Below, one piece after another: positions 691-31,081 of a DNA stretch of 32,000 nt. Below the pieces are notes generated by a model that made no database searches, was not told the DNA's origin, and saw nothing but the letters and a program-made list of their open reading frames with translations. How positions within the stretch are numbered: the stretch's first letter is position 1; the number at the start of each line of letters is the position of its first letter. Location: positions 79,678-111,677 of the forward strand of contig JAOASE010000006.1 in NCBI GenBank assembly GCA_025210155.1, written 5' to 3'. The translations under genes were made by a program, and so were the position numbers. Source of the DNA: Alphaproteobacteria bacterium (GTDB taxonomy: Bacteria > Pseudomonadota > Alphaproteobacteria > Rs-D84 > CASDRH01).

Positions 691-1788
691 TTAGAATGTA
701 TTTTGGATTTGATTTGAAATATCGAATATACCAAATAGAACCCATGCAACAACAGCAAATATGAACATTAAAGCTATACCATTAAGTATGGCTGCTTGAG
801 CTTTTATAAGCTTAATACTATCTTCTAAGAATTCACTTGCTATCTTTTCCAAAGCTTCTTGGAAATTATCAAGCTCAGAATAAATCGTAAGGTCACCAAT
901 AATTTCTCTTGTTGGGAATTCGAATCCCGTTCTATTTAAAGCTTGTCCTAAATTGGCACCATTTCTCATGTAGGCCAATGTTAAATCCAATCTTTCTGTT
1001 AGATAGATTGTAGAATCTTTTCTAATCATTTGAACACCTTTTACAATAGGTACTCCGGCTTTAACTAGAGCTGAAAGCGAAAGAAGTAGTGACACACCAC
1101 TAAACATTCTATACAGAGACCAAGGTGGGACTTTATCTAAGAATTTTCTCAAAGGACCTGTAAGGTATTTTAATGACATACCAATTACAACAAATACAGC
1201 TATTACTGCAGGTGGAATATAAAACCAGTAATGAAGCATGAATTCAGACAAATCAATCAAGGATCCTGCCATACCACCAACTTCTTTTCCTTCAAAGAAT
1301 TCTGCCATAGGCGGAACCATCTTAAGACCAATCATAATAAGTAATAAAAATGTTAATAATATTAGGAATGCAGGATATGCAAGGGCAGATTTAAGAGGTT
1401 CTAAAATTCTTTTATAACCTTCTGAAACTCGTATAAGATTAACTAGGGAAACTTCTAATCTAGACATGTCTCCGGCCATTAACATCATTCGTTCTCTTTC
1501 AGGAACCCAACCTGATATTGCGTCGGCGAAACTTCTACCTTTCTGAAGTTCATAAATCCAAGCTGAGAGGGCTATTGCAGGTGCTTCTTCCACCTTTTTA
1601 CCATCATAGGATTCAATCATCCAAATTCTTTCAAGAGCATCTGACAAAGAGAAATTGTTTCGTAGTAAAGAAGCTAGTTTATGGTATATTCTTAGTCTAG
1701 CTTCACTGCTACCGTTAAATGAAAATCTTGCGAATTTTACACTTAAAGGCATAATACTATTTATATTTTTTACTCTTACGTTAGGCAT
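691..1788 (-). CDS. pilR: Type IV pilus / T2SS inner-membrane platform protein (GspF/PilC family; PilR of R64-type T4b pili by context)
   Basis: 365 aa polytopic membrane protein with two repeats of a cytoplasmic helical domain followed by hydrophobic segments. Examples are 'YPAFLILLTFLLLIMIGLKMVPP' and a C-terminal 'ILNGIALMFIFAVVAWVLFGIF'. It lies immediately downstream of the GspE-family ATPase in one operon. Confidence 0.8.
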   Translation of the reverse strand: MPNVRVKNINSIMPLSVKFARFSFNGSSEARLRIYHKLASLLRNNFSLSDALERIWMIESYDGKKVEEAPAIALSAWIYELQKGRSFADAISGWVPERERMMLMAGDMSRLEVSLVNLIRVSEGYKRILEPLKSALAYPAFLILLTFLLLIMIGLKMVPPMAEFFEGKEVGGMAGSLIDLSEFMLHYWFYIPPAVIAVFVVIGMSLKYLTGPLRKFLDKVPPWSLYRMFSGVSLLLSLSALVKAGVPIVKGVQMIRKDSTIYLTERLDLTLAYMRNGANLGQALNRTGFEFPTREIIGDLTIYSELDNFQEALEKIASEFLEDSIKLIKAQAAILNGIALMFIFAVVAWVLFGIFDISNQIQNTF

Positions 1789-1818
1789 TTATACTCTTTC
1801 CATAAATTTAAAAGATAA

Positions 1819-3417
1819 TTAACTATATCTATCGATGAATCCACACCATCTTTCAACTTCTTCAATACTAATAAGACCTCTAAACATCTTTTCAACCGCT
1901 GCTTCTTTCAGGGTTCTTCCGGATAATTCATTGATCCAGTACTTCATAGCTTCTTCATTTTTATTCACTGTCATAAGTTCTAAGAAATATGCATCTGGAA
2001 TAATGATTTCTGAACAAACTGTTCTACCTGTAACACCTTTATAGTCACATTGTTCACAACCATCTCCTTTTAATGAAGTTTGTTGTAAACCTATATCACC
2101 ATAAGCTTTTAATATTCTTTGATAGGCTTTCATTTCTGGATGATCTGCTAGCCTTTTTTTACAATTAGGACACAGTGTCTTGAATAGACGTTGAGCAGTT
2201 AATCCTCTCATAATCTCAGGATCTTTAAGCTTAAATGGCTCTACCCCCATATCCATAAGTCTCAAAATAATCGCTGAACCTGAATTGGCATGGAGTGTAG
2301 TCCAAACGTTGTGACCAGATAAGGCACCCTTAAAGGCTAATTCTGCTGCGGAAAGTGTTCTGACCTCACCAATCATTAATGAATCGGGATCGGATCTAAG
2401 AGAGGCAGCCAAGGCTTTAATGAAAGCCTCTTCTTTTTCTTCTTCGTTTTCTGCATTTGTAACGGGCATCTGTCTCGCACCTGGAATTGGATACTCAGGA
2501 GGATCTTCCACCGTAATTAGATTGATTTCATAATTATTTTCTTTTAAGTACTTAATCATATTTCTTTGAAGAGTTGTAGATTTACCCGAGCCGGTTGGAC
2601 CAGATACAACAACAATACCTGTAGGTGCAGCTCTTAATTCTTGGAACTGTTTATCTTCTAGTTCTGTGAAACCACCAGCTTTTAAATCGTCATTTTTACT
2701 ACTTGTATTGGCATAAAGTAGTCGCATAACTAAATATTGTGAACCAAAGGCTATGGGATTGAACTGTAAACGAATCGCAAGCACGTTACTTGGAAGATAT
2801 AAATCTGTATCACCTTGTATAGGTGTATCCCCTAGTTTCTGACCCGCCTGGAATTCATTTTGAGAATAGTTAGAATCTGATATATCTGCAGATGCAAATA
2901 CTGAACGGACGAATGCCTCTCCCCAGTCTCCACTATACTCTAGAACTGTTTGCATAGTACCATCAACTCTGAAAATAACTGATGTTTCTTTTCCTACTAC
3001 GACGTGGACGTCGGACACGCCTAGCTTTGCTGCTTTAGCGATGATATCAACATAGGCCTTTTGCATTTCATTTTTGAAATTACCTCTTTGTTGATTTTTA
3101 TTATCTATAGTTAGGAAACGAGATTCGTTTTGATATAAAGAAGATAGCAATCTCATACCAAGATAAATAGGATCATGTATCTCATAACCACTTCTTTCCA
3201 TTAAGGATTTGAATGCAAATACTCTACCGTCAAACTTATGTGTTTCTGAAACTACAAATGTACCATCAGAAAATAGGGCCAAAATGTCTTGATGACCTTT
3301 TGCCATTTCTAAATCGGAGAAGTCACTTGTTAATAAGCGATTTTCATCAGCAAATAGTTTCTCTGCTAGATCTTCTTCATTTAGATTTAATAGATCTTCT
3401 TCTTTTATTATAGCCAT
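1819..3417 (-). CDS. pilQ: Type IV pilus assembly ATPase, GspE/PilB family (PilQ of R64-type T4b pili by context)
   Basis: 532 aa. Walker A 'SGPTGSGKSTT', Asp box 'ITVEDPPEYPI', Walker B 'LMIGEVR' and His box 'GHNVWTTLHAN' are all present. A C-terminal tetracysteine motif 'CPNCKK...CEQCDYKG' is also present. Confidence 0.9.
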   Translation of the reverse strand: MAIIKEEDLLNLNEEDLAEKLFADENRLLTSDFSDLEMAKGHQDILALFSDGTFVVSETHKFDGRVFAFKSLMERSGYEIHDPIYLGMRLLSSLYQNESRFLTIDNKNQQRGNFKNEMQKAYVDIIAKAAKLGVSDVHVVVGKETSVIFRVDGTMQTVLEYSGDWGEAFVRSVFASADISDSNYSQNEFQAGQKLGDTPIQGDTDLYLPSNVLAIRLQFNPIAFGSQYLVMRLLYANTSSKNDDLKAGGFTELEDKQFQELRAAPTGIVVVSGPTGSGKSTTLQRNMIKYLKENNYEINLITVEDPPEYPIPGARQMPVTNAENEEEKEEAFIKALAASLRSDPDSLMIGEVRTLSAAELAFKGALSGHNVWTTLHANSGSAIILRLMDMGVEPFKLKDPEIMRGLTAQRLFKTLCPNCKKRLADHPEMKAYQRILKAYGDIGLQQTSLKGDGCEQCDYKGVTGRTVCSEIIIPDAYFLELMTVNKNEEAMKYWINELSGRTLKEAAVEKMFRGLISIEEVERWCGFIDRYS

Positions 3418-3421
3418 TCAT

Positions 3422-4261
3422 TTAACCCATATATAAAGTGTATACTTTTCCAGCTTTTTTGAAAACAACTGATTCATTAGTTATTTTGATAACTTCAAAC
3501 TTATCTACAATGTTTCCTTTTGCAATTTTAGATGTTTTTCCTGATTTAATATTTTTAATTACAGCTATTAATTCACCTTTAATACCCATTATAGAATCTA
3601 TAGCTATTAAATCAGAAATATCCTGCTCTTGCTCCATTTTAACAAAACCTTTTTGATTTAAAGCAAGTTGTTTTTCAGCTTCTTTTTTAGCTTCTTCATT
3701 TTGTCTTCTATCTAAGAAATCTGCCATAAAAGCTATTTCCTCTGGTAAAACACCATTATTTTCTTTTTTAACTAAAAGAGCCAAATCATAATGATCTCCC
3801 TCAGGATCTTCTAAAATAGCATTAATTAAACTATCAATTATCTCCTGCTTTTTAGCCTCGACCCTAGCCTCTTCTTCTTCCTTCAACCTTTGAGCATCCA
3901 TTTCTTTTTGAAGTGCCTCAGCCCTTCTTTTTTCAGTTTCTGCTTCCATTCTTTTCTTTAAAGTTTTTGCTTCTAGCTCTAATCTAGCAGCTTCTTTTTT
4001 AGCCTTTAATTCATCTAAAGAAAGTTGAAGTTTTTCTTGTTCTGATTTTAATTTAATAAGAGCATTTTTTCTTTCAATTTCTGTCATGATAGAGAAAAGA
4101 TCATCTGTTTCTTGGAATTCTCCTCCATCGAAGATGTCTTCTATTAGCATTTCTTCTGCAACAACCTCTGTATCACCATAGTCATCAAAAGTATCTTGTG
4201 AATAAGATATTTTTGCCATAGACAATACCAATAATAATGAAAACAAACTAGTCTTTACCAT
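3422..4261 (-). CDS. Exported coiled-coil protein with small C-terminal beta domain; PilP-like pilus biogenesis protein by position
   Basis: 279 aa. Sec signal 'LFSLLLVLSMAKISYS/QD'. About 75 aa of E/K/R-rich helix ('KEAARLELEAKTLKKRMEAETEKRRAEALQKEMDAQRLKEEEEARVEAKKQE'). The C-terminal 'IKGELIAVIKNIKSGKTSKIAKGNIVDKFEVIKITNESVVFKKAGKVYTLYMG' resembles PilP/GspC-HR type small beta domains. Its start overlaps the upstream gene's stop by 14 nt. Confidence 0.45.
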   Translation of the reverse strand: MVKTSLFSLLLVLSMAKISYSQDTFDDYGDTEVVAEEMLIEDIFDGGEFQETDDLFSIMTEIERKNALIKLKSEQEKLQLSLDELKAKKEAARLELEAKTLKKRMEAETEKRRAEALQKEMDAQRLKEEEEARVEAKKQEIIDSLINAILEDPEGDHYDLALLVKKENNGVLPEEIAFMADFLDRRQNEEAKKEAEKQLALNQKGFVKMEQEQDISDLIAIDSIMGIKGELIAVIKNIKSGKTSKIAKGNIVDKFEVIKITNESVVFKKAGKVYTLYMG

Positions 4262-5720
4262 AGATCTCTCCTTTATATTTCCACTTCTTTCCGTTCATAC
4301 TCCATTCAATTGAAGTAACTACCATTCCTCCAAAACTATCTAGGAACGGAGAAAACGTTGAAAATTTTTCTTTTGATGTAATTTCAAAACTTACAAACTT
4401 ATATGTTTTTTCTTGAATACTTTTACCTTCTCCAAAAGAGAATGTTTTGCTTCCTTGCTTAACAATACTTGATATTTTGTTTTCTTGGAAGAAATCTTTT
4501 AATGACTTTTCAATATATTTAACATTTTCTCTTGGCTCTGAAACTAGTTTTTTAACTTTATCAAATTTTAAAACACCACTAGCTGAACCATTCTTACTAA
4601 CTGTTAAACTCACATCTGAAGGAATATATCCCTCTTCCTGTGCTCTAAATACATACTCTTCTTTGCTAAGACCTCTTTTTCTCCAATCTATTCTAGCTCC
4701 ATCTTTACTACAGCTAATACCGGAGAAACCCCAGCCAGCAAAAGGCAAATAAACGGATTTTAGCGTTGAGAAACAAACCTTATAAATTTCTTCTGGATCA
4801 TAAGCATTTTTCCAAGGCTTTGCTTCGTCTATTTTCTTTTGTATCTTTCTTTTTTCTTCTTCTTCTCTAATCTTTTTTTGCTTTGCTAATCTTTGTCTTT
4901 GCTTAACAACTAATTCTTGAGCTGCCTGTCTTTTGTTCTCCATATATTGATTTTTAAATTTAAACATAGAAAAAACAACCACCATGGATATGAATAAAAA
5001 TATTATAAAGCTATAAGTTTTTTGATCTGATAATGACTTGATTTTTGCTAAAGAAAAATCGTCTATCATTGTTTTTAATTCAGCACCTATATCAGCATCT
5101 GAAACATTCCAAGAAGGAGGCGCAACCTTATATCCCCAATCAGGAACTGATAACATTGTTTCAAAAGCTAACCTAGCTTCTGACTCACTTTTATAAAGAA
5201 TATCCTCTTCTGGTAGAATCATGTCATTTCGAATAACAAGCATCCACCAACCTTCAGGAACTTCAAATACACAAAGAGCGCTACCTTTGTCAGAATATCT
5301 ACTTGCTACAAATGGTGCCGCAGCTGACATTCCTTCTTTATACCCATCCTGAGATGACATAAGACCATATTGAGCGACCCCAACTTCTTTAACGCAATAA
5401 AGATCATATTTGTTATCTTGTAAAACTTTTGAAACAGCTTTTATTTCTTTAAGCTTATTTTCTTCATCGTTAAATGGTTGCCAGAAGATACCAACCGCAT
5501 ATTTTTTTCTATCTACAGTTATGTAACTTTTTGTACTAGCACCAGATCTTTTTGCTTTTTTCACGGGAGCTGTTGGCTTAGCAATTGAAACGTCTTTACT
5601 TTCGCCTTTAGAAGTTTTCTTTTCATCCTTTTCTGCGTTAGACGAGCTTGAAGAGCCACCCTTGTTCTCAGATGGCTTTTGATTTATAAATTCTTTTATT
5701 TTATCTATAAAATTTATCAC
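4248..5720 (-). CDS. Bitopic pilus assembly protein, PilO (R64/PAPI-1 type) -like
   Basis: 490 aa. It has a Ser/Lys-rich N-terminus and a cytoplasmic domain starting 'KKYAVGIFWQPF'. A single TM segment 'YSFIIFLFISMVVVFSMF' is followed by the basic helix 'RQRLAKQKKIREEEEKRKIQKKIDEAK' and then a periplasmic domain. Its position between secretin and PilP-like gene matches pilO in the pilL-N-O-P-Q-R order. Confidence 0.5.
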   Translation of the reverse strand: MINFIDKIKEFINQKPSENKGGSSSSSNAEKDEKKTSKGESKDVSIAKPTAPVKKAKRSGASTKSYITVDRKKYAVGIFWQPFNDEENKLKEIKAVSKVLQDNKYDLYCVKEVGVAQYGLMSSQDGYKEGMSAAAPFVASRYSDKGSALCVFEVPEGWWMLVIRNDMILPEEDILYKSESEARLAFETMLSVPDWGYKVAPPSWNVSDADIGAELKTMIDDFSLAKIKSLSDQKTYSFIIFLFISMVVVFSMFKFKNQYMENKRQAAQELVVKQRQRLAKQKKIREEEEKRKIQKKIDEAKPWKNAYDPEEIYKVCFSTLKSVYLPFAGWGFSGISCSKDGARIDWRKRGLSKEEYVFRAQEEGYIPSDVSLTVSKNGSASGVLKFDKVKKLVSEPRENVKYIEKSLKDFFQENKISSIVKQGSKTFSFGEGKSIQEKTYKFVSFEITSKEKFSTFSPFLDSFGGMVVTSIEWSMNGKKWKYKGEIYGKD

Positions 5721-5743
5721 TCTCTCTCCAATTTTAAATTTTA

Positions 5744-7378
5744 TTATCTTAAGAAACTACCCTCTAGAGCTCTGTTATTAGGATGCAATGGTGAATTTAT
5801 CACTTGTGGAGTAATTAATACAACCAACACATCTCTTTCCACGTTGCTAACCCTTGAACCTCCGGCAGCTATGAAATTAGGATCTCCAAGACCTGTGTTT
5901 GTGTTCTCATTCTTAACTTTTTCAAAGCCCGTAAGAACTACTGTTTGACCAGATCTAAGGACTAATTCTTGAAGGAAACTTCTTTCTTCAATTGTTGGAA
6001 GTTGGATATTTGTGATAGATTGATCATCTTCACAGTCAACCTCTGTAGTACCGTCAGCTGCATAGCAGGTATCGTCGTTTTCTTCACTACCAGTTGATGA
6101 AACAGTATCAAGAGATATTAACTCTGTATAAGAAAGGTTAAACATCATTAACAATCTACCATTATCCAAAATATTTGGAAGCAATTGAATTGAGAAACCC
6201 TCTTCTATTTCATCAGTTTGAACTTCTGTTTCAGAACCACTTTCAGTACTTACAACTTTAATTTCACTAACATACTTATATTTTTTTAAGTTATTAAATG
6301 GAACTACTTTATTATTAATAGTTGTTAAAACAGCACTTGTTAATAGAGATGTTCTTCCCTGCTTTGATATTGCAGCTACTACAGCATCTATATTAGGACT
6401 ATTAACTTTATGACCGTCTCCTGCTTTATCTGTATTTCCTATCATATATTGTATACCAGAACCATTTGAAACTGCACCAGTACCACTAATACCTTTGAAA
6501 TTAAGATCCTTATGAAGCAATTGGAAATTAATCCCCATAGAGTCTCCATCATTTAAAGACACTTGCATAATTTTAACAGCGACAACAACTTGTCTAGAAA
6601 ATCTTTCATTTTGAATTCTAATGAACTGACCTATTTTTTTGATAACATCTGGAGATGAAGTAACAGATATTGTACCTGTTGATTTCGAAATTGTTATAGA
6701 ACTCTTATCATCTTCTTCTGTTTTAATAATATCGTTAAGACCTTGCTCAACCTCAGTCCAAGCATCAAAAGTTGAAGAAGAAGAAACTGAGCCTCCCCCA
6801 CTAGATGCAGATACTGACGTGCTGAAATCTGATGATGTTGATAAAGCATATAACGCAAATATTTTTGTCTTTCTTTTATAAAGTACTATTTCGTTACCTG
6901 TATATTCCCAATAGACACCTATTTCGTTTGAAATAAGATTTAATAGACCACTTAAAGAACCTGTATAAGAAAGTTGAAAATTTTCACCTTTTAAACTCTC
7001 GTCAACAGAGTCCAACCTAACTTTTAAACCTGTAAGATAATATAACTTATTAGCAAATGAAAATATATCTAATTCCTCTTTAGAAGAGAATGTTATTCCA
7101 TAATCCCCCTCTAACTCTTTAGGAAGAGGTTTTCCAGAAGACAAGATAACACTTTCATCACCTAAGAAAAGCTCATCAGTTTCAGAAACTGTATCAACCT
7201 CTATTGCCTCACTAGGAAGCTTAGACTCTTCAATCCTTTCTTTTATCTCTTCAAAAGAATGATCCACGTTTTCCATGATATGCTCTTTAACTTTTTCACC
7301 ATAACAACCTGTCAAAGAAACAGAAGCCAATAAAAGTATTGCTAATAACTTTACCCTACTAATTTTAACCATTATCAT
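5744..7378 (-). CDS. pilN: Lipoprotein secretin of type IVb pilus class (PilN/BfpB-like)
   Basis: 544 aa. Lipoprotein signal 'LLLASVSLTGC' (lipobox LTGC). Secretin-type C-terminus 'GQTVVLTGFEKVKNENTNTGLGDPNFIAAGGSRVSNVERDVLVVLITPQVI'. Upstream beta-rich N-domains are present. Its start overlaps the pilL-like stop by 14 nt. Confidence 0.8.
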   Translation of the reverse strand: MIMVKISRVKLLAILLLASVSLTGCYGEKVKEHIMENVDHSFEEIKERIEESKLPSEAIEVDTVSETDELFLGDESVILSSGKPLPKELEGDYGITFSSKEELDIFSFANKLYYLTGLKVRLDSVDESLKGENFQLSYTGSLSGLLNLISNEIGVYWEYTGNEIVLYKRKTKIFALYALSTSSDFSTSVSASSGGGSVSSSSTFDAWTEVEQGLNDIIKTEEDDKSSITISKSTGTISVTSSPDVIKKIGQFIRIQNERFSRQVVVAVKIMQVSLNDGDSMGINFQLLHKDLNFKGISGTGAVSNGSGIQYMIGNTDKAGDGHKVNSPNIDAVVAAISKQGRTSLLTSAVLTTINNKVVPFNNLKKYKYVSEIKVVSTESGSETEVQTDEIEEGFSIQLLPNILDNGRLLMMFNLSYTELISLDTVSSTGSEENDDTCYAADGTTEVDCEDDQSITNIQLPTIEERSFLQELVLRSGQTVVLTGFEKVKNENTNTGLGDPNFIAAGGSRVSNVERDVLVVLITPQVINSPLHPNNRALEGSFLR

Positions 7379-8102
7379 CTCCCAATGTTTTTATAACTAA
7401 AACCTTATTCCCCAAATAGAATTTTGCATATGGAGGTGGAAAAGCTTTTGAAAAGCTTTTTATTAAAGCAGATGTAACATCCTTATACCTACCTCTAAAT
7501 ATAGCTGACGCCCTTAAAGGATATTCTCTATCCGTTTGCCACAAAATCTCCCAACCAGTTTCCTCTGACCACTCTTCAAGAACCTCCCTTAAAGTAAGAC
7601 CTTCTTTTGCAACCCAATTTTGAATTTGAGTTTCATAATTAACCATTTCTTGAGTTTCATCACCTTCAGCCTCTACAACCTCAACCTCAGGATTTATATA
7701 ACCTTTTATATGATCGAATTTATTGCCTTGATCCCCACCAAAAGGAGATGAAACAGATAAAACTCTCATACCATCATCTTCAGCCATTTCATTATTTCCT
7801 AATGGCATAGCAGCTCCCTTAGAAGTTGCTTTATCAGAGAATACCGACGCTGGAAGCTCTGAAACTAAATCTGCCCCACCTGAAAAAGAGCCCAAATCTA
7901 TACCAGCTGGGATTACCGATTTTTCTGCTGTACCGAAATTTTCATTAAAAGAACTCATTTGAACGTCTGCAGTATTAATTTCTGCCCAACTGGGAGCATT
8001 AACTACACTACCAGATTCTGCAAACGAATAATCCGCCCTTGACGGCGTGGCCATTAAAACTACTAATAAGCTTAAGGCTTTTTTAATATTTGATAAACTC
8101 AT
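7365..8102 (-). CDS. pilL: Exported TcpQ/PilL-domain pilus biogenesis protein
   Basis: 245 aa. Sec signal 'LSLLVVLMATPSRA/DY' with no lipobox Cys. The C-terminal 'WVAKEGLTLREVLEEWSEETGWEILWQTDREYPLRASAIFRGRYKDVTSALIKSF...NKVLVIKT' fits the TcpQ/PilL domain pattern. It is the first gene of the operon, directly upstream of the secretin. Confidence 0.65.
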   Translation of the reverse strand: MSLSNIKKALSLLVVLMATPSRADYSFAESGSVVNAPSWAEINTADVQMSSFNENFGTAEKSVIPAGIDLGSFSGGADLVSELPASVFSDKATSKGAAMPLGNNEMAEDDGMRVLSVSSPFGGDQGNKFDHIKGYINPEVEVVEAEGDETQEMVNYETQIQNWVAKEGLTLREVLEEWSEETGWEILWQTDREYPLRASAIFRGRYKDVTSALIKSFSKAFPPPYAKFYLGNKVLVIKTLGDDNG

Positions 8103-8125
8103 GGTTTCCCCTCTCTTTAGCTTTT

Positions 8126-8154
8126 AGTATAACTAATTTTCAAAAACTTTTCAA
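8126..8154 (-). promoter_or_regulatory. Sigma70-like promoter candidate for the pil operon
   Basis: The minus strand reads TTGAAA (8154-8149), a 17-nt spacer, then TATACT (8131-8126). An RBS 'GAGAGGGGA' precedes the pilL-like ATG at 8102. The AT-rich background makes chance matches common. Confidence 0.4.
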
Positions 8155-8219
8155 GAAACTTTTTTATTATTGTATCAAAAAAATGGAAACATTGCAAACG
8201 AAATAAAAATACATTTTTC

Positions 8220-8248
8220 TTGTTTTCTTTTTTTGTTTTACTTATAAT
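8220..8248 (+). promoter_or_regulatory. Sigma70-like promoter candidate for folD
   Basis: TTGTTT (8220-8225), a 17-nt spacer, then TATAAT (8243-8248). RBS AAGGA lies at 8262-8266 and the ATG at 8274. A perfect 10-bp palindrome TGCAATTGCA (8248-8257) overlaps the end of the -10. Confidence 0.35.
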
Positions 8249-8273
8249 GCAATTGCAAGAAAAGGATTGATAA

Positions 8274-9134
8274 ATGAGCAAGATTATAAATGGAAAAGAG
8301 ATAGCTGAAAACATATTAAAAGAACTTAAAGAAGAAGTTAAGGCTGCAGAGACTCAAATAAGCAAATCACCCCAACTTTCTATAATATTAGTTGGAGATA
8401 ATTCTGAAAGCAAAATTTATGTAAAAAACAAAATTGCCAGAGCCAAAGACGTTGGCATAGAAGCAAGTTTTTATGAACTACCTGAAGATTGTTCAGAAGG
8501 CGATTTAGAATTTTTAATAGATAGTTTAAATACCGACGAAGATGTTAATGGAATTATAGTTCAACTACCATTGCCAAAACATCTAAACGAAGATAAAATT
8601 TTAAATAAAATCACCCCTGAAAAAGATGTGGATGGATTCACCGATACTAATCAAGATGCTTTATTTAAAGGAAGTTCTGACTTCATATTCCCTGCAACTC
8701 CATTAGCTGTTATAGAACTTATTAACAGATTTGATAACGATATAAATGGAAAGAAAAGTTGCGTTATTGGAAAGTCAAAAATTGTCGGGAAACCTCTGGC
8801 AAAAATGTTGGAAAACCTTGGTGCGGATGTAACTACTATAGATAGAGACACTAAAAACCCTGAAGACATTTCATCAAGTGCTGACTTATTAATAGTTGCT
8901 GCTGGAAGCAAACATTTAGTTAAAGAGAACTGGGTAAAAGAAGACGCATTAATAATTGACATTGGTATTACAAAAGATAACGATGGAAAGATTTATGGAG
9001 ATGTAGATTTCGATAATGTTGTTGATAAAGCTAGAGCTATCACACCCGTTCCTGGAGGCGTAGGACCTATGACAATTGCAATGCTTCTTACAAATACTGT
9101 CAAAGCATTTGAAAAACAAAATAAACTTATTTAA
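8274..9134 (+). CDS. folD: Bifunctional methylenetetrahydrofolate dehydrogenase/cyclohydrolase
   Basis: 286 aa. Motifs 'ILVGDNSESKIYVKNK', 'GIIVQLPLPKHL' and 'ITPVPGGVGPMTIAMLL' are present. Confidence 0.95.
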   Translation: MSKIINGKEIAENILKELKEEVKAAETQISKSPQLSIILVGDNSESKIYVKNKIARAKDVGIEASFYELPEDCSEGDLEFLIDSLNTDEDVNGIIVQLPLPKHLNEDKILNKITPEKDVDGFTDTNQDALFKGSSDFIFPATPLAVIELINRFDNDINGKKSCVIGKSKIVGKPLAKMLENLGADVTTIDRDTKNPEDISSSADLLIVAAGSKHLVKENWVKEDALIIDIGITKDNDGKIYGDVDFDNVVDKARAITPVPGGVGPMTIAMLLTNTVKAFEKQNKLI

Positions 9135-9148
9135 TTTTGGAGAATATT

Positions 9149-9808
9149 ATGAATATTTATATACTGATCTTTATATCTTTGATTACTGCTTATGTAATTG
9201 GATCAATACCTTTTGGTATAGTAATAAACAAATTATTTAATGGACCAGATTTAAAGACTATTGGATCTGGAAGTACTGGAACAACAAATGTATATAGGGC
9301 TTCCGGCGCCGTTGCTGCCTTATTAACACTTCTGCTGGATTCATTTAAAGCTGTAATCGCAATATTAGTTGTTAGATTTTTAATTTCTGGAGATGCTGTT
9401 GCAAATTTAGGACTAGAAACCAATCTTGCAGACTTCATGATTTCATTTGTAGCCGGCTTTACAGCATTAATAGGGCATTGCTTTTCACCGTTTCTTAGAT
9501 TTAAAGGGGGAAAGGCAGTAGCCACTTCTGCGGGATTAATATTTTATTTAAATCCTAAAACTGCATTAATAGCCTTACTTGCTTGGATAATCTTATTTTC
9601 ATGGAAAAGATATGTATCTTTAGCCAGCATATCAGCTGCATTTGCATATCCTTTGATATTATCTTTCATGGACACTTCAATGATAACTTGTGAAAAAATA
9701 TATTCTTTTATTTTACTAGCAATATTTATATTAGTAAGACACAAAGATAATGTTAAAAGATTGATAAATGGGAATGAAAATAAAATATCATTTTCTAAAA
9801 AGAAATAA
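9149..9808 (+). CDS. plsY: Glycerol-3-phosphate acyltransferase PlsY
   Basis: Polytopic membrane protein with 'GSGSTGTTNVYRA' and 'FKGGKAVATSAG' motifs. I moved the start to the ATG at 9149 (MNIYIL...), preceded by GGAG at 9139-9142. The track ORF begins at a TTG at 9137. Confidence 0.9.
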   Translation: MNIYILIFISLITAYVIGSIPFGIVINKLFNGPDLKTIGSGSTGTTNVYRASGAVAALLTLLLDSFKAVIAILVVRFLISGDAVANLGLETNLADFMISFVAGFTALIGHCFSPFLRFKGGKAVATSAGLIFYLNPKTALIALLAWIILFSWKRYVSLASISAAFAYPLILSFMDTSMITCEKIYSFILLAIFILVRHKDNVKRLINGNENKISFSKKK

Positions 9809-9820
9809 TTAATAATTAAA

Positions 9821-10930
9821 ATGGATAAAATTGAAAAAATAAATTCCTTAAGACTAATTAATACCCCTCAAATTGGAGGAGTAAATTTCAGACGCCTTAT
9901 TAATAAATATGGAAATGCAAATGAAGCGATTAAAGCTGTTAAGGTACTCTGGGAACGAAAGGGGCTTGAAGTTTGTAGTGTAGATTTTGCCGAAGCTGAA
10001 ATTAAAAAAGCTGATGAAAAAGGGATTAGAATTTTATTCTGGAAAGAAAGTGATTTCCCTAAAAAATTTTTAGAAATAGCTGATTTACCTCCCATTATAT
10101 ATGTTCTTGGAAATGTCAGGGCTCTATCAAACAAATCTATTGCAATGGTTGGATCTAGAAATGCATCTGTTAATAGTAGAAATCTAACTTTTAACATATC
10201 AAAAGAACTATCTGAAAAAAATATTACCGTAGTTTCTGGACTAGCCTTAGGAATTGATACAGCTGCGCATGAAGGTGCATTAGCTGGAGGTGGAAGCTTT
10301 CCAACTGTAGCTGTTTTAGCCGGAGGAGTAGATGTTATATACCCACTTAGAAATAAAGATATATATAAATCAATTATTGAAAATGGTGGTGCTATAGTTT
10401 CTGAAAACCTAATTAATGCAAAACCTATTGCTGCGAATTTTCCAAGAAGGAATAAATTAATTTCTGGATTAGCCTGTTCTGTTTGCGTAATGGAAGCTAA
10501 TGAAAAATCTGGGTCTTTAATAACTGCTAAATATGCTCAGAAACAAAAGAAAAGTATTTTTGCTGTACCTGCAAACCCATTAAACCCTCAAGCTAATGGA
10601 ACTAATATGCTGTTGAAGAGTGGAGCTAACATGCTTATGTCTGCAAGCGATATTTTAGAAAATATAAATAATGAAATGTCTAGCGATCTATTTGATAGCA
10701 TAAATGAAGACTCCTTGTCTTTTGAAGATGAACTAGAGGTGGATAAATTGGAAGATAAAAATATTGAGAATGAAATTCTTTCTATGCTTTCTGAAAATCC
10801 AATATCACTTCATGAAATTATTGAAAAATCATCTTTAAATAAAAAAGATATAATTTCACACCTACTTTTGCTGGAATTAGATGGCAAAATTATATCTGAA
10901 AATTCTAATATGTATTCTAGAGTTTTTTAA
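9821..10930 (+). CDS. dprA: DNA processing protein DprA (Smf)
   Basis: 369 aa. 'IAMVGSRNAS', 'VVSGLALGIDTAAHEGAL' and 'FPRRNKLISGL' mark the DprA Rossmann-like core. A C-terminal winged-helix-like tail is present. Confidence 0.9.
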   Translation: MDKIEKINSLRLINTPQIGGVNFRRLINKYGNANEAIKAVKVLWERKGLEVCSVDFAEAEIKKADEKGIRILFWKESDFPKKFLEIADLPPIIYVLGNVRALSNKSIAMVGSRNASVNSRNLTFNISKELSEKNITVVSGLALGIDTAAHEGALAGGGSFPTVAVLAGGVDVIYPLRNKDIYKSIIENGGAIVSENLINAKPIAANFPRRNKLISGLACSVCVMEANEKSGSLITAKYAQKQKKSIFAVPANPLNPQANGTNMLLKSGANMLMSASDILENINNEMSSDLFDSINEDSLSFEDELEVDKLEDKNIENEILSMLSENPISLHEIIEKSSLNKKDIISHLLLLELDGKIISENSNMYSRVF

Positions 10931-10931
10931 A

Positions 10932-11657
10932 CTATTTAAACAGAATTTGATTATATATAGATGCTATTGAAATGCAGGCCGTCTCTGCTCTAAGAATTAG
11001 AGAACCCAGATCTATGGACTTAACATTATATTTTTCAAAAAGTTCAAATTCCTGTTTTGAAAAACCTCCCTCTGGACCAACTATAAATATATTTTCACTT
11101 TTGAAGTTTATTTCTGTATTTAATAAATTAGATCCTTTACCAGCCCTCTCATCTAGCGCATATATTTCAACATTATCTTTTTTAGATTGGCCTCTTAGAA
11201 ATTCCTCCAACTTTATAACGTCTGAAATTTCTGGAACTGAAATTCTTTCACACTGTTCACAAGCCTCTTTTGAAATAGCTTGCATCTTATCTTTTCTTAT
11301 ATGCTTGCTATAAGTATGTTCCGTTATGATTGGAGTTAATTTAGAAGCACCTAATTCTGTAAGCTTTTCAATTAGTATAGAAAGCCTATGTGGTTTTATT
11401 AAAGAAAAAGCAATGTGTAAATTTGTTTGCAATTCTTCTGATAAGTCTTTTACTTTTTTAACTGGAAGTAATGAGCAACTCTTTTTGGTTAACTGAGAAA
11501 TCTCTGCAACAAACTCTCCTGATATAGAATTGAAAATATTTATTTTATCACCTATAGATTTTCTCATAACATTCTTTAGATAATGAGTTGTTTTGCTATC
11601 TAACTCTATAATTTTATCTTTAGAAATTAACTCTTCTACACATATTCTTATTTGCAT
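10932..11657 (-). CDS. rsmE: 16S rRNA (uracil1498-N3)-methyltransferase RsmE
   Basis: 241 aa. 'THYLKNVMR' (PUA-like N-terminus), 'IFIVGPEGGFSKQE' and 'LGSLILRAETA' are present. Its stop lies 1 nt from the dprA stop (convergent). Confidence 0.85.
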   Translation of the reverse strand: MQIRICVEELISKDKIIELDSKTTHYLKNVMRKSIGDKINIFNSISGEFVAEISQLTKKSCSLLPVKKVKDLSEELQTNLHIAFSLIKPHRLSILIEKLTELGASKLTPIITEHTYSKHIRKDKMQAISKEACEQCERISVPEISDVIKLEEFLRGQSKKDNVEIYALDERAGKGSNLLNTEINFKSENIFIVGPEGGFSKQEFELFEKYNVKSIDLGSLILRAETACISIASIYNQILFK

Positions 11658-15287: not shown

Positions 15288-16037
15288 ATGAAAAACAAGA
15301 TAAATTCACACTTTAAGATTGTTGTTACTATATGTACAGCCTGCGCTACTATGGTGTTTTTAAAGTTTGCCTTAGCTCAAAGCGAAACTCAAAAATCTAT
15401 CTACAGAGAAGAAACTAAAATATCTGAGGAGATAGATAATTATGAAGCTATGGAAGAAAAATATAAGCTGGAAATAGAAAAAAAGCAGAAAATAATTAAT
15501 ACTGCTCAAAGCAAAATGAAAAAGCTTAGAACTGATATATTTGAAACAGTTCAAGAAATTCACATAATCAAACAAAATGTTAGAGAGCTTTTCAATAGTA
15601 AGAAAAATACATACGAAGGACTAACTACTTTATCAGCTATAAATAGTAAAATTATACCTGAAGTACTTATATCTCCTGTAGGATATCAAAAGGAAGGCAC
15701 TATAGTTACTGAAAATGGAATTAAAAAGAATGTTGTTAGACCTTGGGGACAAGTCGCTATAAATAGATTTGGCGGACTTATTAGCGTTGACTCTGTAGGA
15801 GACAATTTCAAACATAAATATTTTAGAATAACGTATTCTGGATTACCTAACTATATATGTGAGGCCTTAATTTTATCTCGTTGGGAAGACAGCTATATTG
15901 GTAGCGCATGGGTTGGTGTTAATGGACATTACTTTTCTTGGGAAGAAGAATTTCAAGAAAACAGCTTGCCTATAAATCAACAAAAAGCCAAGGAAATTTG
16001 CAGAGGTGGTGGATACTTCCAAATAGGATTTGAATAG
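15288..16037 (+). CDS. Hypothetical exported or membrane-anchored protein: N-terminal hydrophobic segment, long charged helix, C-terminal type IVb-pilin-like two-Cys domain
   Basis: 249 aa. The N-terminal hydrophobic segment is 'FKIVVTICTACATMVFLKFALA'. A coiled-coil-like region covers roughly aa 35-105. The C-terminal 'KYFRITYSGLPNYICEALILS...KEICRGGGYFQIGFE' has Cys191 and Cys238. An in-frame upstream TGA at 15264 fixes the N-terminus. Confidence 0.6.
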   Translation: MKNKINSHFKIVVTICTACATMVFLKFALAQSETQKSIYREETKISEEIDNYEAMEEKYKLEIEKKQKIINTAQSKMKKLRTDIFETVQEIHIIKQNVRELFNSKKNTYEGLTTLSAINSKIIPEVLISPVGYQKEGTIVTENGIKKNVVRPWGQVAINRFGGLISVDSVGDNFKHKYFRITYSGLPNYICEALILSRWEDSYIGSAWVGVNGHYFSWEEEFQENSLPINQQKAKEICRGGGYFQIGFE

Positions 16038-21217: not shown

Positions 21218-22624
21218 TTAATCCTTCTTTGCTTCTCTCTTTATTTCCACATATCTATTAGATGGATTGTTTTTTTCAGATATATATATTTCTTTATCTA
21301 ATTTTATATCTTTATTTGATGAATTATTATTTACAACATCTATTGCTGCCTGAGCTCTATCGTTTGCTAATTTCTGATTATTAGGAGTTTTTCCACCATC
21401 AGCAGCTCCCGTTATAATATAATAACCCGAAGGAAGATTTTGTAAATTTGTTAAATTCATATCTCCAGCCTTAATTTTTGTAGCTCCTGAAGCGAAATGG
21501 ATTTTTATAAACTGACCAACCTTCATTTCCGACACTGATTTTGGGGAGCCACTTCCCATCTCTTCAACGTTAAATTTATAATTTTCTATTTCTTCAAGAG
21601 AATAGTTAACGATTGTTTTTCCCATAGTTTTATCAACACTGAATTTGCCTAGTTTATTATCATCTTCGATTCCCCATTTTTTAAACTTTTCTTTAACAGC
21701 TTCCGTTGGATTGGATTTTTCTGTCTGGATTGATTTCTCTTTTCCAATAGTTAATCCATTAGATTTTAATTTGTCAGAAATCTCTTTACCTTCTTTTGAT
21801 AGAGTTTGTTCTTTTGAAGTTGAAATTTCAAATTTCCCCTTATATTTTCCATCTTTAGATTCATATAAAACCTTTCCATCTTTTTCTATTAATGGAGTTT
21901 TTGGTTCAGGACATAACTTTCTTAAATATCTGGCTACCCAATAAACATTCCCATCTTTCGATGTTGTCCATTTCTTATCGACAGGACTATGTGGGTCTTT
22001 AGCATTAAGCCTATAAGATAGAACTCCTGAACCTCCAGCTGCTAATAAATCTTCACACGTTTTAGGTTCTTCAGTTTTAGCTTCTAACCCCTCTTGCCCT
22101 ATAGCTAGCTTACAGGCTGTTTTGTGTTGTAACCAATATCTACCTTTTTTCTTACACTTAACTAAATTAACAGACTTCATGCCCCTCATTGCCTTATTAG
22201 ACTCTCCAGTAGTAACTATAACACCTGTACCTACTGCAGTTAGAGCTGTTGCTGCTATAGTGACACCCTTATTATTTTTATATTTCTTTTCTGCTCTACC
22301 TAACTTTCTACTATAATTTTCATATTGAGATTTCAGGAATGCTAAATCCGAAGAAATTTCTTCATTATCATTATTTAACTTTGTTGAAATGTACTCTAAA
22401 TCTTTTTGATCAGATCTCTCGCATTCATCATCGTAAGAATTTACAAACGCAGATAATTCACTTAATCTTGATATATGATCCTCAATTTCGTCTTTACTAC
22501 TAGCAGAGGAAATATCTCCATTCTCACTTAGAATGGAATTAAAATTGCTTCTTGTTACTTCTGCTAATGCAAATGTTTGTAAAGAAAAAATGCAGCTTAT
22601 TGTTGTTAATATTATTTTTTTCAT
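21218..22624 (-). CDS. Exported protein: coiled coil, Ala/Thr/Gly-rich hydrophobic segment, Lys-rich middle, OmpA-like peptidoglycan-binding C-terminal domain
   Basis: 468 aa. Signal 'ILTTISCIFSLQTFALA/EV'. The hydrophobic segment 'GVTIAATALTAVGTGVIVTTG' spans aa 120-140. The C-terminal 'IHFASGATKI...YYIITGAADGGKTPNNQKLANDRAQAAIDVV...NRYVEIK' follows the OmpA_C pattern (F.f.s.a.l ... i.GhtD..G....N..LS..RA.aV ... NRRVEI). RBS AAAGGAAG lies upstream. Confidence 0.7.
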   Translation of the reverse strand: MKKIILTTISCIFSLQTFALAEVTRSNFNSILSENGDISSASSKDEIEDHISRLSELSAFVNSYDDECERSDQKDLEYISTKLNNDNEEISSDLAFLKSQYENYSRKLGRAEKKYKNNKGVTIAATALTAVGTGVIVTTGESNKAMRGMKSVNLVKCKKKGRYWLQHKTACKLAIGQEGLEAKTEEPKTCEDLLAAGGSGVLSYRLNAKDPHSPVDKKWTTSKDGNVYWVARYLRKLCPEPKTPLIEKDGKVLYESKDGKYKGKFEISTSKEQTLSKEGKEISDKLKSNGLTIGKEKSIQTEKSNPTEAVKEKFKKWGIEDDNKLGKFSVDKTMGKTIVNYSLEEIENYKFNVEEMGSGSPKSVSEMKVGQFIKIHFASGATKIKAGDMNLTNLQNLPSGYYIITGAADGGKTPNNQKLANDRAQAAIDVVNNNSSNKDIKLDKEIYISEKNNPSNRYVEIKREAKKD

Positions 22625-22651: not shown

Positions 22652-23872
22652 TTATATTGGGTAATCCATATTAAGATCTTTCATTAATTCTTCTTCGAAC
22701 TGTTGATTTTGTTCGAATATATCTTTATCTAAATTTTTAGAGTTATCTTTACTTGTTTCTTCCTTAGACTTTCTTTTACCTGAAAATAGTCCTTTTTTCT
22801 CCTTAGGATCTTTTACTTTTGAAGTTTTCTCTTTTTTCTCTTCTGGAGCTTTAGTCTTTTGAGAAGCTTTTGAAGTCTTAGAAGACTTATTAGTATACTT
22901 CTTTTTACACATAGTTTGAAGCATTGAAGATGTTACATCTTTTCCATTCCATTTAGAAAGAATGCCATTTTCATCCCATTCTGCATGAGCTGTGCTTAAT
23001 AATCTATCACATTTAGGTTTCTTCTTATTTCTATAATCTGAGCTACATAAACATTTTTTAATTGCAATATTTTTTGTTACTGAAATTGTTGCCCAAGTAG
23101 TTGCTGCTACAGCAGTAGTTCCAGAAATTATAGCTGTAGCTTGCATAGTTTTTGCTTTTTTATCCATGTCTTTGTAATCTTTTTTCACATCTGCAACTTC
23201 TTTTTTATACCAAAGAATTTCTTGAAGATTTGAAATAGTGTTATTAATAGACATTAAAGCTTCTGACCTTTGATCTGTGCAGTAAAAAACTTCTGCCGCC
23301 TCTTTACATATATGCTCTTCTTCTGAAAATACAAAATTCACGCCACAAGAACATTGTCCGTTAATCCAAGTTCCTGCTCCATTAGCTTCACATAAAGCCT
23401 GTCTTGTTTGACATTTACTTGAAGGGATAACATCGCTCCATACTAAACCAACGTTAACACAAGCTTCTTCTGTTCCACAATATATTGGAGTTTCCGCAGA
23501 ACAAACATGCTCTGTATCTTCTTGTTCTACACCATTAACGTTCTTTGGAAAACACATTCCATAGATAGTTTTACCCTGTGGATTAACCCATTCTGTAATA
23601 GTTTCCGTTGGATTACTTGAGTCGTTTGGATTTGTCTTTGTCCACTTTGTTTGCCAAAGACCACCTTGAGCCTCACAATCTTGCTGAGTATAACAGTAAA
23701 GAAGTGCATCTCCACAACCCATTTGTTTTTTCTCAACCTCATTGGTGAAAACATTTGTTGCAGAAACTCTACTTCTTGCGTAAGAGTTTGTTCTTTTACC
23801 TCTAGAATAAGATGTGCTTGCCATAGATAGCAACATCATTACAGATAATGATACATATAAAACTTTTTTCAT
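22652..23872 (-). CDS. Exported Cys-rich protein, paralogous in its central module to the adjacent 468-aa protein; Lys-rich tail with acidic C-terminus
   Basis: 406 aa from the ATG at 23872 (MKKVLYVSLSVMMLLSMASTSYS...), with RBS GAAGGGA upstream. The track ORF starts 29 codons earlier. The protein has 17 Cys. The motif C-x-T-x3-C-x3-G-x2-W occurs twice exactly, plus a third degenerate variant. The hydrophobic segment is 'QATAIISGTTAVAATTWATISVT'. The C-terminal tail reads 'KTSKASQKTKAPEEKKEKTSKVKDPKEKKGLFSGKRKSKEE...EEELMKDLNMDYPI'. Confidence 0.7.
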   Translation of the reverse strand: MKKVLYVSLSVMMLLSMASTSYSRGKRTNSYARSRVSATNVFTNEVEKKQMGCGDALLYCYTQQDCEAQGGLWQTKWTKTNPNDSSNPTETITEWVNPQGKTIYGMCFPKNVNGVEQEDTEHVCSAETPIYCGTEEACVNVGLVWSDVIPSSKCQTRQALCEANGAGTWINGQCSCGVNFVFSEEEHICKEAAEVFYCTDQRSEALMSINNTISNLQEILWYKKEVADVKKDYKDMDKKAKTMQATAIISGTTAVAATTWATISVTKNIAIKKCLCSSDYRNKKKPKCDRLLSTAHAEWDENGILSKWNGKDVTSSMLQTMCKKKYTNKSSKTSKASQKTKAPEEKKEKTSKVKDPKEKKGLFSGKRKSKEETSKDNSKNLDKDIFEQNQQFEEELMKDLNMDYPI

Positions 23873-23961
23873 TTCTAAATATCCCTTCTTATAAGAATGA
23901 TATATTTTAACATATTTTTCAATACCTTGCAAATAATTTAAACAACTGAGATTTAACAAAT

Positions 23962-26757: not shown

Positions 26758-26910
26758 ATGAATAAATTTATGATACTTACAGTTCTTATGCTTACTGCTC
26801 TTTCAGGATGTGGAACTATATATGAGCCAGATCCGGTTGGCACAGGCTATGACATAAACGAACTTAAATTATCTCCTTGTGCTTGCATGCAAGTAATGAA
26901 CCTTGCATAA
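26758..26910 (+). CDS. 50-aa lipoprotein, VirB7-like by size, lipobox and position
   Basis: Absent from the ORF track because it is under 60 aa. ATG at 26758, TAA at 26908-26910. The sequence is MNKFMILTVLMLTALSGCGTIYEPDPVGTGYDINELKLSPCACMQVMNLA. The lipobox is LSGC. A strong RBS lies 8 nt upstream. It sits immediately upstream of the VirB8-like and VirB9-like genes. Confidence 0.5.
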   Translation: MNKFMILTVLMLTALSGCGTIYEPDPVGTGYDINELKLSPCACMQVMNLA

Positions 26911-26930
26911 GTCCTTTTAAAGGAATAAAC

Positions 26931-28656: not shown

Positions 28657-28688
28657 GTTTTACAAGGTTTTAAATAGGGGTAAAATTC

Positions 28689-28717
28689 TTGTAAAAAATC
28701 TCATTTTCTGTTATAAT
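28689..28717 (+). promoter_or_regulatory. Possible internal sigma70-like promoter upstream of VirB8-like paralog 3
   Basis: TTGTAA (28689-28694), a 17-nt spacer, then TATAAT (28712-28717), in the 81-nt gap before the ATG at 28738. The AT-rich background makes this weak evidence. Confidence 0.3.
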
Positions 28718-28737
28718 TGTTTTTGGTAGGGAAAAAC

Positions 28738-29472: not shown

Positions 29473-29489
29473 TTGTTGCTAAAAAAGTC

Positions 29490-29519
29490 TTGTTTAGAAC
29501 ACCTATTTTGTAGTATAAT
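29490..29519 (+). promoter_or_regulatory. Possible internal sigma70-like promoter upstream of the VirB9-like gene
   Basis: TTGTTT (29490-29495), an 18-nt spacer, then TATAAT (29514-29519). RBS AAGGAAGGA precedes the ATG at 29544. Confidence 0.3.
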
Positions 29520-29543
29520 AGTTTTAAAAGGAAGGAAATTAAA

Positions 29544-31064: not shown

Positions 31065-31081
31065 TTTCATAAGGAAATAAA

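Follow-up and report, generated by a model that had tools for sequence, protein, structure and literature searches.

Type IVb pili (T4bP) occur mainly in Proteobacteria and were earlier described only in Gammaproteobacteria (Denise et al. 2019, PMC6668835). The thin pilus of plasmid R64 (pilI–pilV), Pil2 of PAPI-1 and the pil locus of SPI-7 have the same parts in the same order as the locus described here, from the TcpQ-domain protein PilL to the platform protein PilR. The bundle-forming pilus (BFP) of enteropathogenic Escherichia coli (EPEC), the toxin-coregulated pilus (TCP) of Vibrio cholerae and CFA/III and Longus of enterotoxigenic E. coli (ETEC) also resemble it in combining a TcpQ protein with a lipoprotein secretin and a BfpC-like bitopic protein. 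In this work, we analyse a 32,000-nucleotide stretch of an uncultured alphaproteobacterium of the Rs-D84 lineage (assembly GCA_025210155.1, contig JAOASE010000006.1, positions 79,678 to 111,677; ‘the window’ denotes this whole stretch), which carries a pilL-N-O-P-Q-R type operon of six genes on the minus strand (691–8102). We conclude that this operon is probably the core of a working chromosomal type IVb pilus whose pilins and prepilin peptidase are encoded elsewhere in the genome.

R64-type clusters lie on plasmids or integrative and conjugative elements (ICEs), whereas the cassette in the window sits among core chromosomal genes of an AT-rich genome and is vertically inherited. In the former, pilS (pilin), pilT, pilU (peptidase) and pilV (tip adhesin, with a shufflon in R64) follow pilR; in the window, a hairpin and ihfB take the position of pilS, pilM, pilT, pilU, pilV and a shufflon are missing, and there is a single TcpQ gene. 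Relatives of the window are nearer to the R64 type, as a pilin follows pilR in four loci and type IV secretion system (T4SS) genes lie near many of them, as they do near a plasmid cluster. The BFP, TCP and CFA/III operons hold pilin, peptidase and minor pilins in cis, whereas the operon in the window holds none of these and the pilin-fold protein of the window bears a Sec signal; the bundlin/PilS-type pilins of those systems (PF05307 plus PF08805) are nevertheless found in the window's relatives, and the model of the window's pilS-like protein superposes on PilS, TcpA and CofA.

The core machine is a recognisable T4bP. What is new is a six-gene module in the core chromosome of a huge uncultured clade with described reduced genomes, together with pilins that are scattered in that clade and, in this lineage, a pilin-fold orthologue with a Sec signal. 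T4bP modules are therefore not confined to plasmids, islands and enteric pathogens. The clade (Rs-D84/Enterousia, with many metagenome-assembled genomes (MAGs) recorded as ‘Rickettsiales’ or ‘Alphaproteobacteria bacterium’) is common in human, ruminant and termite guts; Rs-D84 at least has genomes of about 1 Mb with almost no biosynthesis.

A six-gene type IVb pilus operon

The operon consists of the following genes.

7365–8102, minus strand: pilL-like, 245 amino acids (aa); exported TcpQ-domain protein with a Sec signal peptide, not a lipoprotein
5744–7378, minus strand: pilN-like, 544 aa; lipoprotein secretin (another start at 7372 gives 542 aa)
4248–5720, minus strand: pilO-like, 490 aa; bitopic inner-membrane protein
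3422–4261, minus strand: pilP-like, 279 aa; exported; contains a long, charged coiled coil and, at the C-terminus, a PilP beta domain
1819–3417, minus strand: pilQ-like, 532 aa; assembly ATPase of the GspE/PilB family
691–1788, minus strand: pilR-like, 365 aa; polytopic inner-membrane platform of the GspF/PilC family

Open reading frame (ORF) calls and translations show six intact, co-directional frames with 14-nt overlaps at two junctions (7365–7378 between pilL and pilN, 4248–4261 between pilO and pilP) and gaps of 4–30 nt at the others, which bears out the gene set, its coordinates and the two overlaps given in a preliminary description of this DNA. The pilL-like product matches the Pfam family TcpQ (PF10671, E = 2.8 × 10−16, residues 161–238) and is probably the partner of the secretin; a TcpQ-domain gene lies immediately 5′ of the secretin gene in 86 of 89 loci. 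The pilN-like product matches Secretin (PF00263, 6.2 × 10−10), and its best NCBIfam match is TIGR02520, the PilN family of T4bP secretins (1.9 × 10−65), at 221 bits and thus below the trusted (equivalog) cutoff of 288 bits, against only 30 bits (1.8 × 10−7) for the GspD model. It is 31–34% identical to annotated plasmid PilN proteins over the C-terminal half. Its lipobox reads LTGC and Cys25 is invariant across 15 homologues, so that the lipidated secretin of the preliminary description stands.

The pilO-like protein has a cytoplasmic BfpC-like N-domain, a single transmembrane helix at about residues 236–258 and a periplasmic C-domain, and matches PAP_PilO (PF06864, 1.2 × 10−13), whereas the pilP-like protein matches TIGR03021 (pilP_fam) weakly (7 × 10−4, residues 212–267). 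These weaker assignments were retested by profile–profile comparison, with family alignments taken from related loci: the PilO family aligns with plasmid PilO2 at 99.1% hhalign probability over 392 columns, its N-domain profile matches the BfpC N-domain structure (PDB 3vhj, 2.4 × 10−9), and the PilP family profile matches annotated plasmid PilP (hhalign probability 94.8%, E = 5 × 10−8). The pilQ-like ATPase matches T2SSE over its full length (PF00437, 1.7 × 10−68) and scores 232 bits against GspE, 212 against PilB and only 44 against the TadA family; its translation contains a Walker A motif (GPTGSGKST), an acidic box (LMIGEVR), a His box (TTLHAN) and a CxxC...CxxC tetracysteine motif. The pilR-like platform matches both repeats of T2SSF (PF00482, 9 × 10−19), with GspF as the best named match.

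Judged from these profiles, all six parts are assigned to families that are either specific to T4bP or belong to the type IV pilus core. The T4bP-specific accessories (TcpQ/PilL, PilO/BfpC-like and PilP) are all found in the operon by profile searches, and so are the PilB/GspE ATPase, the PilC/GspF platform and the PilN-type secretin, which the TXSScan model of T4bP treats as mandatory. Secretins of T4bP are usually lipoproteins of PilN/TcpC/BfpB type. The TXSScan model also requires a major pilin with a class III signal peptide and an A24 prepilin peptidase, but allows the peptidase to be a loner, that is, encoded away from the cluster (Denise et al. 2019, PMC6668835). As R64-type references, we used annotated plasmid clusters, namely that of Hydrogenophaga pBPS33-1 (L089) and those of IncI-type and other E. 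coli plasmids. The Hydrogenophaga plasmid carries, in order, virB8-virB9-virB10, two TcpQ genes, PilN, PilO2, PilP, an ATPase and a platform, and after these a major pilin, an ATPase resembling PilT, PilM, another ATPase and PilV; in a cluster from an E. coli plasmid (L092), pilin, A24 peptidase, lytic transglycosylase and minor pilins are all present in cis. The L-N-O-P-Q-R order of the window, described earlier as being of R64 type, is that of the Hydrogenophaga cluster, with pilM absent.

Two further elements mark the ends of the operon.

672–646, minus strand: terminator-like hairpin, a 12-bp stem followed by a T-rich tract, directly 3′ of the pilR stop codon
8126–8154, minus strand: promoter-like site, TTGAAA, 17 nt, TATACT (10 of 12 matches)

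The hairpin is a consensus match only, as such sites are no commoner in the region than shuffled sequence would lead one to expect. The promoter-like site, in the 171 nt that separate pilL from the divergent folD, is likewise a consensus match without statistical enrichment. Beyond the hairpin come ihfB (286–570) and accD, as previously described, with the terminator supported at the level of a consensus hairpin. The other flank consists of the housekeeping genes folD, plsY, dprA, rsmE, ftsQ, ftsA, rpe, prmC, glyA, priA and efp and those for ribosomal proteins L25 and S1. The window contains no tRNA gene, no Rfam match and no integrase.

Selection, distribution and inheritance

To measure constraint, we compared the window with a strain at roughly 85–96% protein identity (L090, L091), where synonymous divergence (dS) is about 0.7–1.3. 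The ratio of nonsynonymous to synonymous divergence (dN/dS) is 0.128 for pilL, 0.035 for pilN, 0.070 for pilO, 0.051 for pilP, 0.029 for pilQ and 0.033 for pilR, values that match or fall below those of folD, plsY, dprA and glyA. Strong purifying selection acts on the operon, which is functional and not in decay. An otherwise identical strain without substitutions in pilO, pilP and pilQ (L002) has a 42-nt in-frame deletion in pilP (2222–3019); it falls in the charged coiled coil and leaves 265 aa against the 279 aa encoded in the window (3422–4261).

We then sought secretin relatives in one genome per GTDB species and examined the loci of the best 80 of 197 genomes. At least 197 species genomes encode a relative, and most loci that are long enough carry the full L-N-O-P-Q-R cassette. 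The carriers are uncultured Alphaproteobacteria from human, ruminant (rumen), rabbit and termite guts and a few sediments, recorded as ‘Alphaproteobacteria bacterium’, ‘Rickettsiales bacterium’ or ‘Candidatus Enterousia’; the few with other labels probably reflect mis-binning. The published genomes of Rs-D84/Enterousia fall below or near 1 Mb and are without most pathways of biosynthesis, and the organisms have been proposed to depend on partner cells (PMC12306168). We found no published description of this pilus module in the literature.

The cassette is an old, vertically inherited chromosomal module and not a recent island, because the identities of its components co-vary, its GC content follows that of its flanks and its downstream neighbours are kept in the nearest group of relatives. 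When loci are compared in pairs, the identities of PilN, PilO, PilQ and PilR correlate in rank (rho 0.76–0.94). The cassette has a GC content of 0.340 against 0.306 in the rest of the window; 46 related loci show the same offset of about three points (+0.029), and cassette GC correlates with flank GC at r = 0.95, in agreement with the core-gene flanks and host-like AT-rich composition noted before. The nearest group (group A; PilN 40% and PilQ 61% identical to the window) has ihfB-accD-accA downstream in common with the window, so that the synteny comparison suggested in the preliminary description shows this gene order kept at only 40% PilN identity. That description also called the locus old and domesticated: its age, chromosomal standing and vertical inheritance are supported by the spread over at least 197 species, co-evolution, GC content and synteny, whereas an origin from a plasmid or ICE is conjectural, as the data give no direction of transfer.

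Canonical pilins in relatives of the window

A motif scan for class III leaders that demanded a hydrophobic or small residue at +1 gave no match in 1.46 Mb. This was a false negative, because the pilins of the clade have Arg at +1 (G↓RSMIEM, where the arrow marks the processing site); they were located with probes from canonical relatives of the pilS-like protein described below. Canonical bundlin/PilS-type pilins with the leader G↓RSM(I/V)EMLGVL occur in a second set of related loci (group B). In four of these (L029, L030, L066 and L072) the pilin gene is directly 3′ of pilR on the same strand, which is the position of pilS in R64. In L007, L027, L028 and L029 the class III pilin module forms the N-terminus of giant Cys-rich proteins, which we regard as candidate tip adhesins. 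These fusions (L007 2472–3608, 3729–7229 and 19507–21228; L027 228–2213; L028 4530–7763; L029 99–1154) are 350–1160 aa long and consist of the G↓RSMIEM... module followed by long Cys-rich repeats.

A canonical pilin lies within 10 kb of the cassette in 8 of about 40 group B species loci and in none of the nine of group A, a difference too small to mean anything. A profile of the canonical pilins found 4339 clusters in a protein database at E values up to 0.1; most of the best 120 have both the Bundlin (PF05307) and PilS (PF08805) domains, and among the matches listed several paralogues come from a single MAG. One canonical pilin inspected in context is a lone gene amid housekeeping genes. Pilin genes are thus mostly unlinked in the clade, and the peptidase is unlinked in every locus seen. 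With plasmid proteins as phmmer queries, neither the window nor any of about 95 related loci yielded a peptidase, PilM, PilV or second ATPase; of the plasmid pilin, PilV, PilM, PilT-like ATPase, lytic transglycosylase and A24 peptidase used as queries, the only protein matched in the window was PilQ itself. Since no peptidase lies beside the cassette even in loci with canonical pilins, its absence in cis is uninformative about the genome, and that of pilins tells little more; since relatives keep canonical type IVb pilins, the system as a whole is not pilin-less.

The machines were also compared in a relative-rate check. The window and group B are 0.34 identical in PilN, 0.54 in PilQ, 0.43 in PilR and 0.27 in PilO, against 0.35, 0.55, 0.47 and 0.30, respectively, between group A and group B. 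The machine in the window is therefore about as far from pilin-bearing group B as that of group A is, and there is no sign of changed constraint.

A pilin-fold protein with a Sec signal

The window contains one further gene that bears on the substrate of the machine.

15288–16037, plus strand: pilS-like, 249 aa; type IVb pilin fold with a Sec-type signal peptide and no class III leader

It lies 7.2 kb from pilL, between prmC and glyA. Its product matches PilS (PF08805, 2.6 × 10−8) at 34.4 bits, above the gathering cutoff of 22, and its AlphaFold (AF2) model, with a mean predicted local distance difference test (pLDDT) score of 79.5, has Salmonella Typhi PilS (3fhu) as its best Foldseek match (probability 1.00, template modelling (TM) score 0.63 relative to the target), followed by TcpA and CofA. 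A sequence search of the PDB gave no pilin match, and the similarity surfaced by fold comparison. The N-terminus, MKNKINSHFKIVVTICTACATMVFLKFALA↓QSE, runs from a short basic segment through a hydrophobic core to an AxA site (FALA↓QSE), and lacks both Gly(−1) and Glu(+5). Only seven in-frame codons precede the start, so that a longer leader is impossible. After the signal come about 45 charged residues, an alpha1-C helix and a head domain with two conserved Cys. The preliminary description had reported no pilin, prepilin peptidase, PilM or PilV in cis, which stands for the operon and, over about 48 kb, for canonical class III pilins, peptidase, PilM and PilV; as regards any pilin it does not stand for the window, given this PilS-domain gene.

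A word-indexed search with the pilS-like protein returned only itself and one relative at 88% identity, whereas a full HMMER scan of 1.84 billion representative proteins gave ten matches besides that relative. Five of these resemble the protein along the pilin head, four with standard signal peptidase I (SPase I)-type AxA signals (P0020–P0023) and one with a signal-anchor-like N-terminus (P0019); another homologue, P0018, has an AxA-type SPase I site, and three distant matches (P0025–27) are canonical pilins that start G↓RSM(I/V)EMLGVLAIIGVLS. A metagenome scan for relatives of the Sec type yielded one short contig only. The position next to prmC is kept in the 88% relative and in orthologues at 42% and 35% identity; the contexts of four Sec-type homologues showed this position, and none of the contigs also carries a pil cassette.

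Because this position is kept and dN/dS is 0.052, the pilS-like protein is an old, conserved and derived member of the type IVb pilin family, in which the class III leader and hydrophobic stem have been exchanged for Sec export. It is a candidate non-canonical substrate or accessory of the operon, a link that we infer. If it is tied to the machine, it would break the rule that substrates of type IV filament systems carry a class III leader.

Proposed mechanism and alternatives

From the known roles of homologous parts, we propose that ATP hydrolysis by a PilQ hexamer would drive the PilR platform and so lift pilins from the inner membrane into a growing fibre. PilO, with its BfpC-like cytoplasmic domain, one transmembrane helix and periplasmic domain, would anchor the motor to the envelope, and PilP would join this inner-membrane assembly to the lipoprotein secretin PilN, which the TcpQ-domain PilL would support and which would be the way out of the cell for the fibre. 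Pilins and prepilin peptidase would be encoded elsewhere in the genome, as is usual in the clade. The pilus would most likely attach to the surface of a partner or host cell, as the organism probably depends on other cells. An attachment role fits the partner-dependent lifestyle of relatives, the giant pilin–adhesin fusions and the frequent adjacency of virB2-virB3-virB4, and the pil module, the large pilin family, these fusions and virB2–virB4 together form a testable candidate for a cell-contact apparatus.

We observed what the six parts are, that they are intact, in which order they stand and how strongly they are conserved and constrained, and we found canonical type IVb pilins in relatives; unlinked canonical pilins and a peptidase in this genome, the making of a fibre and its part in adhesion are inferred. 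Several results weigh against it. The roughly 48 kb of this genome that we examined, which begin some 6.4 kb ahead of the window and reach about window coordinate 41,000, contain no canonical class III pilin and no A24 peptidase; group A loci likewise have neither of these within 10 kb of their cassettes; and the sole pilin-fold gene found in the window's lineage lacks Gly(−1), Glu(+5) and a class III leader. A retraction ATPase, PilM and PilV are also missing in cis, and the paper that describes Rs-D84 genomes gives type IV pili only for another lineage and not for Rs-D84 (PMC12306168).

A rival reading is that the lineage has lost class III pilins and peptidase altogether and that its conserved motor, platform and secretin now handle the Sec-exported, SPase I-cut pilin-fold protein of 15288–16037, either by driving it out by way of PilN, much as a type II secretion system (T2SS) would, or by assembling an atypical surface structure. 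In the former case the machine would do the task of a T2SS, moving a Sec-exported periplasmic protein across the outer membrane. We consider such rewiring unlikely, and the implied new secretion route or surface structure, in which a type IV filament machine is fed by a substrate without the hydrophobic alpha1-N stem, a shade more doubtful. In its favour are the combination of a type IVb pilin fold with a basic, hydrophobic and AxA N-terminus, standard SPase I sites and no G(−1)/E(+5) in P0020–P0023 while the distant P0025–27 are canonical, the purifying selection on the gene and its fixed place beside prmC down to 35% identity, and the lack of canonical pilins and peptidase both in this genome's 48 kb and near group A cassettes. 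Yet the pilS-like gene and the operon are linked only by co-occurrence in one genome, and no locus seen has the two side by side. About 95% of the genome lies outside the stretch over which pilin and peptidase are absent, canonical pilins and peptidase are unlinked in related lineages too, and the machine shows no rate acceleration relative to lineages with canonical pilins. Moreover, we know of no type IV filament machine that assembles subunits without a hydrophobic alpha1-N segment. A short pilus that captures DNA, for transformation or as a source of nucleotides and together with DprA, is less probable again: dprA lies about 1.7 kb from pilL, divergent and after folD and plsY, a plsY-dprA pair is found just downstream of pilL-pilN in Enterousia-type loci, and Rs-D84 genomes are reported to lack nucleotide biosynthesis (PMC12306168), but dprA is a widespread core gene, here seemingly left over from a shared gene order. 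Neither comEC nor comEA turned up beside any cassette, and canonical pilins would be required here too. Known type IVb pili (R64, TCP, BFP and CFA/III) serve adhesion, aggregation or mating and not DNA uptake.

It is very improbable that a T2SS or a Tad (type IVc) system has been mistaken for a type IVb pilus. In common with a T2SS, the operon has an ATPase of the GspE family, a platform of the GspF family, a secretin and a connector of GspC/PilP type; the ATPase fits GspE a little better than PilB by score, and GspF is the best named match of the platform. The secretin, however, is of PilN type by a wide span of bits over GspD, the TcpQ, PAP_PilO/BfpC and PilP proteins are T4bP accessories, pseudopilins (GspG–K), GspL, GspM, GspC and a second platform gene are missing, and relatives have bundlin/PilS-type pilins. 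Tad systems have a TadA/CpaF ATPase, tadB plus tadC, RcpA and Flp, whereas the window has an ATPase that scores poorly against TadA, a single platform and a PilN-type secretin. The secretin scores, the accessories and the single platform gene leave the T2SS or Tad reading unsupported and, with the plasmid PilP, PilO2 and BfpC matches, uphold the R64/PAPI-1-like type IVb assignment of the preliminary description. Hardly credible is a pil locus in decay, left behind by an integrated plasmid or ICE, that has shed its pilin genes and ceased to work. The operon does lack pilM and the pilS/T/U/V genes that reference clusters have after pilR, but its six frames are intact with dN/dS of 0.03–0.13 at a dS of about 0.7–1.3, the cassette is kept in a lineage in which genomes smaller than 1 Mb are common and occurs in at least 197 species, and there is no integrase, tRNA gene or composition break. 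Intact frames, dN/dS and the tracking of flank GC thus do not support a pseudogene either.

Variant loci in relatives

Some relatives carry reduced or rearranged versions of the locus. Enterousia-type loci (L022, L041, L057–L061, L063, L064, L069, L070, L073, L077, L085 and L087) have pilL-pilN only; next come unrelated proteins of unknown family (in L073, for example, of 268 and 1037 aa) and then plsY and dprA, and none of pilO, pilP, pilQ and pilR lies within 10 kb. Either the operon has been split or the secretin pair has been kept without the motor. The genes plsY and dprA are close to pilL-pilN both in the window (9137–10930) and in these distant loci (L073 16254–19393), probably as a remnant of ancestral gene order and not as a functional link. 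In a sediment MAG, ‘Rickettsiaceae bacterium 4572_127’ (L023), pilR (7408–8496, minus strand) lies upstream of pilL-pilN (9145–11560, plus strand); pilO, pilP and pilQ were not detected in this locus, and ihfB and accD are still downstream.

Other relatives have additional genes beside the cassette. Forty-two group B loci encode an exported protein directly 5′ of pilL on the same strand (for example, L006 8491–9255, L007 7540–8880 and L025 7839–9035), which is 250–630 aa long, has no Pfam match and is conserved in a C-terminal domain about 110 aa in length; the window lacks this possible seventh component. Divergent virB4 (PF03135, 1.4 × 10−11), virB3 (weak) and virB2/TrbC (1.1 × 10−8) genes lie beside the pil cassette in L025, L027, L032, L038, L066, L072 and others. 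A VirB2-like gene is carried in 27 loci, and a T4bP–T4SS neighbourhood is also found in the Hydrogenophaga cluster. A few genes upstream of pilL, 11 loci (L029, L031, L037, L042, L046, L050, L051, L055, L071, L076 and L088) encode a conserved trio that may regulate the pilus, made up of a small protein whose HDxKGQG motif is Hpt-like, a response regulator of OmpR type and a histidine kinase resembling EnvZ. Downstream of pilR, L006, L043, L067, L074 and L081 share a conserved, phage-like block on the opposite strand with matches to Hydrolase_2, T7_gp14 (weak) and Phage_nozzle (faint).

Other genes in the window

A cluster that resembles a T4SS occupies 26758–32000 on the plus strand and continues to about 33.9 kb in L097. 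It comprises an ORF of 50 aa and, in tandem, three bitopic proteins of 319, 275 and 251 aa, of which the third matches VirB8 (1.2 × 10−5), and goes on with VirB9/CagX bearing a C-terminal SPOR domain (506 aa), VirB10/TrbI (623 aa) and lepA, with no virB11 or virD4 after it. On the minus strand, 21218–22624 and 22652–23959 encode two adjacent exported proteins of 468 and 435 aa, the second Cys-rich, which match no family and do not resemble the Cys-rich tails found in the giant pilin fusions. Their counterparts in the close strain L091 are 593 and 354 aa long and differ strongly in length and sequence; the pair appear to be fast-evolving surface proteins.

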